From IMG/VR virus record IMGVR_UViG_2740892112_000004, positions 1 through 10,733 of that record: a stretch of DNA of 10,733 nucleotides; one strand, written 5' to 3'. The DNA is from a virus. Taxonomy: Duplodnaviria; Heunggongvirae; Uroviricota; Caudoviricetes. A model generated the notes under the pieces. That model worked only from the letters and a program-made list of their open reading frames with translations, ran no database searches and had not been told where the DNA came from. This document shows positions 3,945 through 9,149 of the stretch, one piece after another (the first letter of the stretch is position 1; the number at the start of each line of letters is the position of its first letter). A program made the position numbers and the translations under genes.

Positions 3945-3980
3945 AAAAAATCATAACTGGATGTTCATCCAGTTATGATT
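3945..3980 (-). terminator. 32-bp palindrome (15-bp perfect arms, 2-bp spacer, 3949-3980) followed on the minus strand by a U-run; terminator/attenuator or operator
   Basis: aatcataactggatg tt catccagttatgatt read directly; the minus-strand hairpin is followed by about 6 T. Confidence 0.45.
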
Positions 3981-4086
3981 ATAATCATGATTGCATTTTG
4001 TGCAATGATATTGAGTTGCGTTGCAAATTATGAAATGATTATCCCGATCATGTGTGTCAGTGCACCAAAAAACCTCATATGCAAAA

Positions 4087-4125
4087 GCCCGATAAGATGC
4101 CTCCTGTACTTATCGGGCTTTTTTT
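4087..4125 (+). terminator. Intrinsic terminator (stronger on the plus strand)
   Basis: GCCCGATAAG, 12-nt loop, CTTATCGGGC, then T7 at 4119-4125. Confidence 0.5.
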
Positions 4126-4131
4126 GGGTAC

Positions 4132-4153
4132 AAAAAAGCCGGATTACTCCGGC
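4132..4153 (-). terminator. Intrinsic terminator immediately after the perC-like gene
   Basis: Minus strand: GCCGGA-GTAA-TCCGGC followed by T6, starting 7 nt after the stop at 4160-4162. Confidence 0.6.
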
Positions 4154-4159
4154 TGTTGA

Positions 4160-7002: not shown

Positions 7003-7236
7003 TTATTCTCCGGTGTGCTGTTCGTTATATCTGTCGTGCAATGTCTCTATTTCCTGCAACTCATTTATTACAGGCTCAAGAAGCGTTATTAATGATGTAA
7101 TAATCCGCGTTTTTTTTGCATTACGTTCATTATCGCCAAAGGATTCAAGGCACATCCGCAATATTTCGTACATACCTTCAGCGTAAGCAAGGGCACTAAA
7201 TGCGCGGTCTATTGTTTCAAGATAAATATCACGCAT
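7003..7236 (-). CDS. Hypothetical protein, 77 aa, net acidic
   Basis: ORF starting ATGCGTGAT (MRD), overlapping the upstream stop by 8 nt; GAGGA SD. Confidence 0.45.
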   Translation of the reverse strand: MRDIYLETIDRAFSALAYAEGMYEILRMCLESFGDNERNAKKTRIITSLITLLEPVINELQEIETLHDRYNEQHTGE

Positions 7237-7462
7237 GGCTTACATCCTCAGGAAATTTTCTTCTGTAACGCGCCTCTGCCACATATTCCGCATAATCGGC
7301 GGCGATATTCAGTACATCAAGTCCCGTTGATTTATATTCTTTCGTGGAAAGTAAGAAAAAAGCCGCTCTAATAAGTTCTGGCATTGACGAAAGCGCATCA
7401 GCCGCATCATCAGGAACGCCGGAAAATTCCTGTTTCAGGGAATTAAAACGATCATCACGCAT
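7229..7462 (-). CDS. Hypothetical protein, about 77 aa (start uncertain: Met at 7462 with poly-G SD, or 7489)
   Basis: ORF 7229-7489. The internal ATGCGTGAT start at 7462 overlaps the upstream stop by 8 nt and follows a G8 run on the minus strand. Confidence 0.4.
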   Translation of the reverse strand: MRDDRFNSLKQEFSGVPDDAADALSSMPELIRAAFFLLSTKEYKSTGLDVLNIAADYAEYVAEARYRRKFPEDVSHA

Positions 7463-7694
7463 AACCCCCCCCATTTTCACAATCAGCAATCAGGATAGCT
7501 TTGGCCTCATTCAGCGCCGTATCAGCACTAAATTGCATGACAGCCAGTGAGTGAGGAACGAAAGCACCGGCATATTCTGTTTCGCTGGTGGCGTGCTTAT
7601 GTGCCCTGTCCGCGATAACAGAAATATCAATCAGCGCGTGCATCAGCGTTTTGATGGCTTCGGCGGCTGCGTCCGGTGTGGTTTTATTGTGCAT
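7455..7694 (-). CDS. Hypothetical protein, 79 aa
   Basis: ORF with AGGGGA SD 7 nt upstream of ATG at 7694. The C-terminal GGG codons lie in the C8/G8 tract. Confidence 0.45.
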   Translation of the reverse strand: MHNKTTPDAAAEAIKTLMHALIDISVIADRAHKHATSETEYAGAFVPHSLAVMQFSADTALNEAKAILIADCENGGGYA

Positions 7695-7896
7695 AAAGCA
7701 TCCCCTGAATATTCGTGTTAATCATTCCGGCACGTTTTGTGATTTCCTGTAATGATTCCCTTGTGGCGACAATTGCTTCATCTGGTAAGTGGTAATTACA
7801 CACCACGCGACCTTTATCCACATTGACCAGTAGCTGCCCTGTGAATTTCTCACGAAACTGAATGCGGTTAAGGTCAGTAAGTGACAGATTAATCAT
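7684..7896 (-). CDS. Hypothetical protein, 70 aa (start at internal Met 7896 of the 7684-7938 ORF)
   Basis: Very good AGGAGGT SD 6 nt upstream of the 7896 ATG. Confidence 0.5.
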   Translation of the reverse strand: MINLSLTDLNRIQFREKFTGQLLVNVDKGRVVCNYHLPDEAIVATRESLQEITKRAGMINTNIQGMLYAQ

Positions 7897-8086
7897 GGCG
7901 CACCTCCTGACGAATACGGGCGGCAAATACAGCAACACAACCGGACGGGCAACGGTTACGCGCTTCGCGTTCCGTCCAGGCGGTTACGTGGATGATTTGA
8001 GATTCTCCGGCACTCAGTGCCAGAAAACGCCACACAAAGGCCGTTTGTGTGTGTACAAGGTGTGGTATATGATTTACAGCAACCAT
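7889..8086 (-). CDS. Hypothetical protein, 65 aa, first ORF of the long operon (start at internal Met 8086 of the 7889-8161 ORF)
   Basis: TAGGAG SD 6 nt upstream of the 8086 ATG; downstream of the predicted promoter and leader hairpin. Confidence 0.45.
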   Translation of the reverse strand: MVAVNHIPHLVHTQTAFVWRFLALSAGESQIIHVTAWTEREARNRCPSGCVAVFAARIRQEVRHD

Positions 8087-8117
8087 AACGGCTCCTAGTT
8101 TACGTTGTTGGTTAGAA

Positions 8118-8158
8118 GCCCTGCGAGTGGTAACGACACTTGCGGGGCTTTGTCTTTT
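8118..8158 (+). terminator. Strong 12-bp stem-loop; plus-strand terminator-like (followed by TTTGTCTTTT) and also a 5'-leader hairpin of the minus-strand operon transcript
   Basis: GCCCTGCGAGTG, 7-nt loop, CACTTGCGGGGC (two G-U pairs as RNA), T-rich tract on the plus strand. Confidence 0.35.
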
Positions 8159-8179
8159 CATCGATTACCTTGATAAAGG

Positions 8180-8259
8180 TGTCAGCCACTATATTAGTAA
8201 CGGGTGTCAGCCACGTCAATAGTGTTTTTCCGTTTTCTTGTGTGTATACTGTCAGCCAC
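8180..8259. promoter_or_regulatory. Three direct repeats (G)GTGTCAGCCAC; candidate operator sites in a divergent promoter region
   Basis: TGTCAGCCAC at 8180-8189, 8205-8214 and 8250-8259. The first overlaps the predicted minus-strand transcription start, the second sits in the promoter spacer, the third lies just downstream of a plus-strand TATACT (8245-8250). Confidence 0.5.
8191..8219 (-). promoter_or_regulatory. Sigma70-like promoter for the long minus-strand operon (-35 TTGACG, 17-bp spacer, -10 TAATAT)
   Basis: Minus strand reads TTGACG (plus 8214-8219), a 17-nt spacer, then TAATAT (plus 8191-8196). Predicted start near 8184. Confidence 0.5.
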
Positions 8260-8280
8260 CTAATAACGAGGAAATCAGAT

Positions 8281-8460
8281 ATGGCAACAAAAGCAGTTAA
8301 TGCAAAATCCAAAAAGCTTGAGGCTCGAGTACCACACGCAATAGCTGATGCTGTAGAAAATTTAAAGGAAGATGGCGAAAGTACAGGGCAATTTATCGTT
8401 TCGGCACTTGAAGGCGAGATCAAACGCCGCCAGCGCCGCAAGGCCAAAGAATCAGAATAA
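8281..8460 (+). CDS. Small putative DNA-binding protein, ribbon-helix-helix-like (59 aa; start at internal Met of the 8140-8460 ORF)
   Basis: GAGGAAA SD upstream of ATG 8281. KKLEARVPHAIADAVENL...GESTGQFIVSALEGEI resembles a beta-strand/helix/turn/helix RHH pattern; basic C-terminal tail. Fold assignment is tentative. Confidence 0.45.
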   Translation: MATKAVNAKSKKLEARVPHAIADAVENLKEDGESTGQFIVSALEGEIKRRQRRKAKESE

Positions 8461-8517
8461 TCACTATCAGCGCCGTGGTGTGAGGTATTACGGCGCATTG
8501 CTATGCAGGACAACACA

Positions 8518-8691
8518 ATGACCGATAAAGAATTGACCAAAACATTATCACCGGCACGGAAAAGACGGCGCAGAAAGATAGAGCATGAATCAGAAAGATT
8601 CGCGTCATGTGCTTTTGCCCTTGAGCAATTCCTTAAAGAGTACAGGGAAAAGCGCTCATTGCAGGTATGGCAACGAACTGAACCAGACTGA
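8518..8691 (+). CDS. Hypothetical small basic protein (57 aa; start at 8518, or 8503)
   Basis: AGGA SD 7 nt upstream of ATG 8518. Contains an ARKRRRRK tract. Followed by the terminator at 8787-8814. Confidence 0.4.
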   Translation: MTDKELTKTLSPARKRRRRKIEHESERFASCAFALEQFLKEYREKRSLQVWQRTEPD

Positions 8692-8786
8692 TTGCATTGC
8701 CCACCAGCCTGATAGCGGCTATCATCCCCGTGCTTATGTTTGGGATCACACACACAAACGGCGCAGCGGGTTATCTGTTCAGAAAG

Positions 8787-8814
8787 GCGGCTCCATTTCG
8801 GGGCCGCTTTTTTT
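8787..8814 (+). terminator. Rho-independent terminator ending the plus-strand two-gene module
   Basis: 8-bp GC-rich stem (GCGGCTCC / GGGGCCGC, one G-U), 5-nt loop, then T7 at 8808-8814. Confidence 0.7.
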
Positions 8815-8960
8815 ATACCTGAAAAACCCCAATTTTGTTGTTTTTCAGTTTCACCAGGGCGAACGAATCCCCGCCCACGTTCTGGCGTATATTCAATCTT
8901 CATGGTTATAGCTCTGTGTTCAGATGATTGATGTGTGGCGGCTGCGTGCCGCCAGCGTGA

Positions 8961-9149
8961 TTAATGAACTGCCTTGCAGCTATCCTTCCAGGCCAGAACC
9001 TCGGATAAAGACCAGCCAACGGAACGACCGCCAAGTTTACGACGTGATGGGAATTGTCCGGCCTTTTCCAGGCGGTAGCGACACGTACGGCTAAGGCCGG
9101 TTAGTTTTTCGCATTCTTTTTCACGTATAAACCGATCAGTGCTTAACAC
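8961..9149 (-). CDS. alpA: AlpA-family DNA-binding protein (prophage CP4-57-type regulator/excisionase-like), 62 aa
   Basis: Helix-turn-helix pattern typical of AlpA/Vis proteins (LTGLSRTCRYRLEKAGQFPSRRKLGGRSVGWSLSEVLAW). AAGGGGGGG SD. Lies immediately downstream of int on the same strand. Confidence 0.8.
   Translation of the reverse strand: MLSTDRFIREKECEKLTGLSRTCRYRLEKAGQFPSRRKLGGRSVGWSLSEVLAWKDSCKAVH

Follow-up and report, generated by a model that had tools for sequence, protein, structure and literature searches.

The phage-inducible chromosomal island (PICI) EcCIO42 of Escherichia coli 042 carries a divergent control region in which three 11-bp sites of the form GTG-N5-CAC lie on the core elements of two promoters, and across related loci the central five bases of these sites track residues 11-15 of a 59-aa ribbon-helix-helix (RHH) protein encoded beside them. 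It is likely that this protein silences the early promoter of the island from the two sites O1 and O2 and holds down its own synthesis through the third site O3, with an antisense RNA as a second lock and AlpA-driven read-through as the bypass. The support for this control mechanism is comparative throughout.

Island and divergent control region

The window, i.e. the whole stretch of DNA that was analyzed (10,733 bp), is EcCIO42. Positions 7600-9000 are 99.9% identical to E. coli 042, where the annotation shows an ~11-kb element within tqsA, and the island was named as a PICI by Fillol-Salom et al. 2018 (PMC6092414). Its gene content is that of Gram-negative PICIs: an integrase, alpA, a replication module and a few phage-like packaging genes within ~10-15 kb, with an attachment site of its own. 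The minus-strand genes are the Icd-like gene, small ORFs, DUF4222, a RepA-type helicase, SSB and PerC, followed by the major capsid protein, a head decoration protein, a scaffold-like protein and a Nu1-like small terminase. At 7229-7694 on the minus strand, two ORFs of 86 and 79 aa stand in place of a single 155-aa gene in the RefSeq record of strain 042, and this split is a point difference from that record. EcCIO42 yielded less than 1 transductant per ml in its sole published transfer test (PMC6092414). Gram-negative PICIs are described as transcribed unidirectionally, with AlpA as the sole known regulator, the presence of a repressor unclear, and induction centred on AlpA, not on derepression (PMC6092414).

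The preliminary description treated the minus-strand genes as one long operon. This part is probably incomplete, since two or three intrinsic terminators (4154-4137, ~4110-4081 and 3980-3949, minus strand) separate perC from the capsid genes, so that the operon is not one simple unit. The packaging genes probably form a separate transcription unit, or need antitermination or additional input. A promoter-like site is present at 4034-4005 within the terminator region (3949-4155, minus strand). The features of the window referred to below are as follows.

7889-8086, minus strand: gene for the 65-aa Icd-like protein, first gene of the early operon, with its ribosome site under the candidate antisense RNA
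8068-8160, plus strand: candidate cis-antisense RNA gene, with a -10 element TATGAT at 8068-8073, a start near 8081 and a terminator stem at 8115-8151 followed by a U run
8112-8903, minus strand: long ORF (263 aa), stop-free back to the alpA stop, antisense to the 57-aa and RHH genes and running through the operators
8179-8189, plus strand: putative operator O1 (GTGTCAGCCAC), from just past the -10 element of the minus-strand promoter to about +6
8191-8219, minus strand: predicted early promoter of the Icd-like/replication operon, TTGACG (8219-8214), 17-nt spacer, TAATAT (8196-8191) (sigma-70; promoter scan)
8204-8214, plus strand: putative operator O2 (GTGTCAGCCAC), in the spacer of the minus-strand promoter and adjoining its -35 element
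8245-8250, plus strand: -10 element TATACT of the putative RHH gene promoter, 31 nt 5' of the ATG at 8281
8249-8259, plus strand: putative operator O3 (CTGTCAGCCAC), over the last two -10 bases and the expected start (~8257) of the RHH gene promoter
8281-8460, plus strand: gene for the 59-aa RHH protein of the YlcI/YnfO family, taken from covariation as the cognate binder of O1-O3
8518-8691, plus strand: gene for a 57-aa basic protein, a variable accessory gene whose product is not the operator binder
8787-8815, plus strand: intrinsic terminator ending the RHH/57-aa transcript, partly bidirectional and inside the long ORF, read directly from the sequence
8961-9149, minus strand: alpA, AlpA-family regulator, the published activator of Gram-negative PICIs (PMC6092414)
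9516-10733, minus strand: integrase gene

Exactly three copies of the 10-mer TGTCAGCCAC are present in the 10,733 bp of the window, all on the plus strand (8180-8189, 8205-8214 and 8250-8259), where 0.03 copies are expected on average and none of 200 dinucleotide-preserving shuffles reached three. The three repeats noted in the preliminary description are thus real. Extended to 11 bp they read GTGTCAGCCAC at 8179 and 8204 and CTGTCAGCCAC at 8249. A further copy with two mismatches, at 2224, is within chance expectation.

The placement of the repeats on core promoter elements, one in the spacer, one over the start and the third at the divergent promoter, was likewise upheld, and it recurs in the relatives. 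On the operon strand the arrangement TTGA(C/A/G)-17/18-TAnnnT is present in 58 of 58 distinct related regions, and the second site always abuts the TTGA(C/A/G) element. In the window the early transcript would start near 8184. The RHH gene promoter falls below the threshold of the promoter scan because its -35 element is poor; its TATACT, or a one-base variant of it, recurs at an unchanged offset in about 52 of the 62 distinct upstream regions among the relatives. A comparison of E. coli with Xenorhabdus-type loci of the same class puts identity to the window at 0.99 within the three sites and 0.55 beyond them. The spacings between the sites (25 and 45 bp) are not whole helical turns, and cooperative binding is therefore not evident.

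The ribbon-helix-helix protein and its putative operators

The 59-aa protein scores 60.6 bits against the NCBIfam model of the YlcI/YnfO family (NF041551; cut-off 30). Its AlphaFold2 model, computed with 39 homologues, has a mean pLDDT of 88 and consists of an extended N-terminus followed by two helices, which is the predicted strand-helix-helix order of the RHH (Arc/MetJ/CopG) superfamily. In the turn between the helices (G32-E33-S34-T35) E33 is invariant among the 39 homologues, and conservation of G32, S34 and T35 is at least 90%. Alignment with hhalign places K12, E14 and R16 of the family on Q9, N11 and R13 of Arc, which are the base-contacting residues of that repressor. A Pfam scan of the protein gave no family at E ≤ 0.01, a PDB sequence search with the family profile gave nothing at E ≤ 10, and Foldseek of the model against the PDB gave nothing; membership in the superfamily is thus assigned from fold and motif. 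The gene is truly coding, as third codon positions are the most variable (0.52 vs 0.26 and 0.20 at the other two). The segment GEIKRRQR(R/K)K (residues 45-54, window 8413-8442) is near-invariant across all specificity classes, while the DNA-reading strand varies, and may be an interface common to the classes, used for a partner or for contacts with the backbone.

The sites were compared across 68 loci that encode homologues of the 59-aa protein, taken from species-level Enterobacterales genomes. Nearly all of them have three GTG-N5-CAC sites at about -102, -77 and -32 from the ATG. The N5 core differs among loci and tracks residues 11-15 of the RHH protein, giving about 21 classes, each with a core of its own, e.g. 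KKLEA/TCAGC, QQLNA/AATCG, QMTTV/TATTT, LQVSV/AACAC, KRFDV/TCGGA and QS(I/V)T(V/A)/TAAGA. The second site is shared in 71 of 79 pairs of loci of the same class and in 2 of 624 pairs of different class. As the core follows these residues and not AlpA, the Icd-like protein or the 57-aa protein, the RHH protein is most readily taken as the cognate binder of O1-O3, in agreement with the preliminary description, which had named it as one of two candidates. Together with the alignment to the strand of Arc, the covariation of residues 11-15 suggests that the N-terminal strand sets DNA specificity, as in other RHH proteins. The RHH gene adjoins the operators, so co-inheritance contributes to the covariation; recombinants in which the AlpA, Icd-like, replication or 57-aa genes have been exchanged argue against another binder.

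The same layout, with an RHH gene, three operators and the antisense RNA, is found in EcCICFT073 (E. coli CFT073 1380242-1381052), the model Gram-negative PICI of experimental work, with lambda and phi80 as known helpers. The operators there are GTGTGGCCCAC, GTGTGGCCCAC and CTGTCCCCCAC at -100, -77 and -32, the strand of the RHH protein reads QALKA, and AlpA is 93% identical to that of the window. The small genes of EcCICFT073 are annotated in the current RefSeq record; the divergent RHH gene, the operators and the antisense RNA are not mentioned in the 2018 paper on this island (PMC6092414).

The exchanges among relatives bear on whether AlpA or the Icd-like protein might itself bind the repeats. 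AlpA activates island genes in EcCICFT073 (PMC6092414), and some PHROG labels for Icd-like proteins read 'transcriptional repressor'. However, loci of different class in which AlpA is at least 90% identical share the operator in none of 55 pairs, and those in which the Icd-like proteins are at least 85% identical share it in none of 23. Conversely, Icd-like proteins less than 40% identical go with the same operator in 90 of 100 pairs of the same class. In addition, one E. coli element (L003) has two cassettes behind a single alpA, KKLEA/TCAGC and QMTTV/TATTT, each with its matching pair. Both proteins are excluded as the specificity determinant by the 55 and 23 differing pairs, and binding of the repeats by either of them is considered very improbable.

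Second complete cassettes lie between the first cassette and alpA in two loci (L002, 2700-3306; L003, 2714-3360), which indicates that cassettes are shuffled between islands. In some E. coli relatives the parts of a second cassette are a truncated Icd-like start, the antisense RNA, operators, an RHH gene and a small gene. The second protein of L002 is RHH-like but not of the YlcI type, and is accompanied by GTGTAAT-type repeats.

A search of IMG/VR for the operator pair returned 19 loci (contigs of 8-27 kb), 18 of which have an RHH gene of the KKLEA type about 100 bp downstream and so carry this control module. The remaining match (L073, contig 3300048775_000079) is unrelated and GC-rich, and has four tandem AAAAGGTGTCAGCC(AC) units with a 22-bp period, iteron-like and without a linked RHH gene. 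Such tandem AAAAGGTGTCAGCC units, and the occurrence of the window's repeats as direct repeats in an AT-rich region, would suit a reading of the repeats as replication-origin iterons; a packaging or recombination site, or chance, might also be thought of. This group of readings is scarcely credible: chance would supply 0.03 copies, and the positions of the repeats are fixed relative to the -35 and -10 elements in all relatives. Also, elements that carry a primase in place of the RepA-type helicase keep the same sites, and in published work PICI origins map downstream of the replication gene (PMC6092414).

The 57-aa basic protein, the second repressor candidate of the preliminary description, is without a homologue throughout the 68 related loci, the Xenorhabdus loci included, and is 98% identical between EcCIO42 and EcCICFT073 despite their differing operators. 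On these two counts it is ruled out as the operator binder. A Pfam scan of the protein gave no family, and no toxin family matches it. Between the RHH stop and the 57-aa start a conserved hairpin (GCGCCGTGG...ACGGCGC) is present at 8463-8497, and it also occurs in both cassettes of L002.

A different view of the RHH protein is that it binds the repeats without being the maintenance repressor, acting instead as a self-activator from O2 (at about -48), a Cro-like factor after induction or an autoregulating antitoxin. The poor -35 element on the plus strand and the location of O2 where class I/II activators bind would agree with activation, and a small gene downstream of the RHH gene in E. coli elements would agree with a toxin-antitoxin pair. 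Against this, O1 occupies the start and O2 the spacer of the opposite-strand, near-consensus promoter in every class, a placement that represses. The gene downstream is not conserved, is without homologue in the Xenorhabdus loci and matches no toxin family. The non-repressor view is accordingly rated as unlikely, though less so than binding by AlpA or the Icd-like protein. From the position of its sites, the RHH protein would act by repression rather than activation.

Membership in the YlcI/YnfO family does not by itself carry this mechanism. In E. coli K-12, YlcI is encoded in the DLP12 prophage (580251-580834) beside a lambda-type cos and nohD, and no GTG-N5-CAC triple was found at the ylcI locus; lacking comparable sites, this member points to a different use of the fold. 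Neither tblastn of the 59-aa protein nor blastn of 8040-8470 gave a match among 50,697 phage records, and nothing thus points to a copy of the protein or the operators in a helper phage.

Candidate antisense RNA and long open frame

Left of the first site, all relatives keep a GC-rich hairpin followed by a T run (8115-8160, plus strand). In 49 of 53 distinct loci the hairpin has its greater stability as plus-strand RNA (G-U pairs 120 vs 23), and the RNAalifold consensus of 40 loci reaches -31.2 kcal/mol on the plus strand and -9.6 kcal/mol on the minus strand. Compensatory changes occur in 15 of the 24 pairs of the consensus fold. In this fold stem-loop 1 exposes a CUCC(U) loop complementary to the Shine-Dalgarno sequence of the Icd-like gene (an anti-Shine-Dalgarno), and is followed by a helix that pairs the start-codon complement and then by the terminator. 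For the window itself, the fold of positions 8081-8160 has -35.4 kcal/mol (z -5.3). The TATGAT element (TAnnnT) lies about 7 nt 5' of the first paired base and persists while the overlapping codons change; the promoter as a whole is weak (8 of 12 consensus matches) and lies within coding sequence. A covariance model finds one copy of the RNA per cassette, and its matches include cassettes outside its training, namely the second cassettes of L002 and L003 and that of CFT073. Rfam, including C4 and isrK, gave no match at E ≤ 1 for the whole window or at E ≤ 10 for 8000-8520. These results establish the structure and its strand; the RNA would presumably be transcribed and act on the Icd-like gene.

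The control region is also crossed by an open frame on the operon strand, which, like the antisense RNA, had gone unnoticed in the preliminary description. In CFT073 this ORF has 428 codons (L093, 6766-8052) and starts 53 nt past alpA. It reads antisense across the 57-aa and RHH genes, crosses the operators and then the gene of the antisense RNA, and finishes as the Icd-like protein. Weak similarity to Bro-N/antirepressor sequences is seen in its N-terminal part. Of 60 related loci, 40 lack any stop in the frame of the Icd-like gene over the ~190 nt that separate the two start codons, and 2 and 8 lack one in the other two frames; the mean stop counts are 1.4 for the Icd-like frame and 6.5 and 3.6 for the others. 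A stop-free stretch that spans the whole RHH gene and the control region is present in 51 of 66 loci. The open frame is thus conserved, and would presumably be translated. In the window no stop interrupts it between the alpA stop codon (8961) and 8112, and it ends 26 nt before the Icd-like ATG, owing to a 1-nt difference (gttgTTggttaga against gttgTggttaga). The P4-type feature of a first gene that is the in-frame tail of an ORF starting upstream is accordingly seen in the 40 loci and in EcCICFT073, and is broken in the window.

Overexpression of AlpA alone induces EcCICFT073 (PMC6092414). With the control region inside a frame that comes from alpA, this points to a P4-like bypass by translated read-through. 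Induction would then probably bypass the switch through AlpA-driven translated read-through, and not occur by simple derepression; the helper-mediated derepression suggested in the preliminary description is thus probably an incomplete account.

Proposed control and relation to known systems

In the quiescent island one RHH dimer would probably be bound at each GTG-N5-CAC operator. With the protein on O2 (spacer) and O1 (start), the strong early promoter, which would drive the Icd-like gene and the replication genes of the island, would be blocked. The weaker site O3, once bound, would limit synthesis of the RHH protein itself, and O2 may also aid the weak promoter of its gene. The antisense RNA, made from the strand of the RHH gene, would cover the Icd-like ribosome-binding site and block translation of any message that escapes. 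Upon helper induction AlpA would rise, and RNA polymerase starting at the alpA promoter, with ribosomes translating the long frame behind it, would pass the terminator at 8787-8815, the head-on RHH gene and the operators, and so enter the replication operon. The packaging genes, behind further terminators, would probably need additional input. The protein-operator specificities, at least ~21 in number, would act like immunity types. A broader version, in which the YlcI/YnfO-family RHH protein is the missing master repressor and immunity determinant of a large group of Gram-negative PICIs, EcCICFT073 among them, with a code of five strand residues for five central base pairs, at least 20 heteroimmune types and, in place of inactivation of the repressor upon helper induction, ribosome-coupled AlpA read-through overriding both repressor and antisense RNA, is put forward tentatively, its chance being judged slightly below even.

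The immunity/early region of satellite P4 (PLL-vis-eta/kil-PLE-CI RNA) is similar in having an AlpA/Vis homologue upstream and a 65-aa first gene after an internal early promoter. In 40 of 60 related loci and in EcCICFT073, though not in the window, the small first gene is, as in P4, the tail of a long frame begun upstream of the promoter. Also as in P4, an RNA would control translation of the small gene, and an upstream inducible promoter would give a translated bypass, as proposed here. For P4, Forti et al. reportedly found in 1999 that termination in the immunity region is prevented when eta is translated from the vis-linked promoter upstream. The 65-aa kil gene of P4 is nested in eta, and the logic of eta/kil control has been described (PMC10111431). 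However, P4 relies on a sense-strand CI RNA that is processed out of the same transcript, and has no protein repressor, whereas here a divergent RHH protein, three operators and a candidate antisense RNA are combined; the RNA lies on the opposite strand and has no C4/isrK match in Rfam, and the element is a PICI with lambda-type capsid genes. The link to kil/eta suggests a common design of early control in two satellite families that have been regarded as unrelated.

The immI region of phage P22 has two RHH repressors, Arc and Mnt, divergent promoters Pant and Pmnt, and the sar antisense RNA over the ribosome site of the downstream gene. The present region resembles it in the small RHH protein, operators in or just past a strong promoter, divergent promoters and a short antisense RNA. 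It differs in that one RHH protein and three separate 11-bp sites stand in place of two proteins with a single palindromic operator each, in that the sequences are unrelated, and in that the controlled operon is a satellite replication programme. The omega repressor of inc18 plasmids (PDB 1irq, 2bnw) uses contiguous 7-bp heptads in arrays of 7-10, unlike the 11-bp units placed 22-45 bp apart here. Similar to Stl/Rpr of the Gram-positive PICIs (SaPIs), the putative repressor gene is divergent from the replication/packaging operon and occurs in many specificity types; however, Stl repressors are large helix-turn-helix proteins inactivated by helper-phage proteins, and no helper-encoded partner is known here.

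No description of the module was found in the literature on RHH repressors in satellites, on YlcI/YnfO/DUF3950 or in newer work on PICI induction, and the function of the YlcI/YnfO family, these operators and this RNA were likewise not found described. Promoter-bound RHH repressors, control by antisense RNA and nested kil/eta frames are all known singly; their combination is new, as is the presence of such control in islands said to lack a repressor. It offers a testable explanation for the silence of the islands and for the avoidance of cross-talk by co-resident ones, and provides the uncharacterised YlcI/YnfO family with a candidate function. The ~21 matched pairs of small repressor and operator may also serve as orthogonal genetic parts. 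The full module is present in 191 of 5,426 complete E. coli genomes, with relatives across the Enterobacterales.
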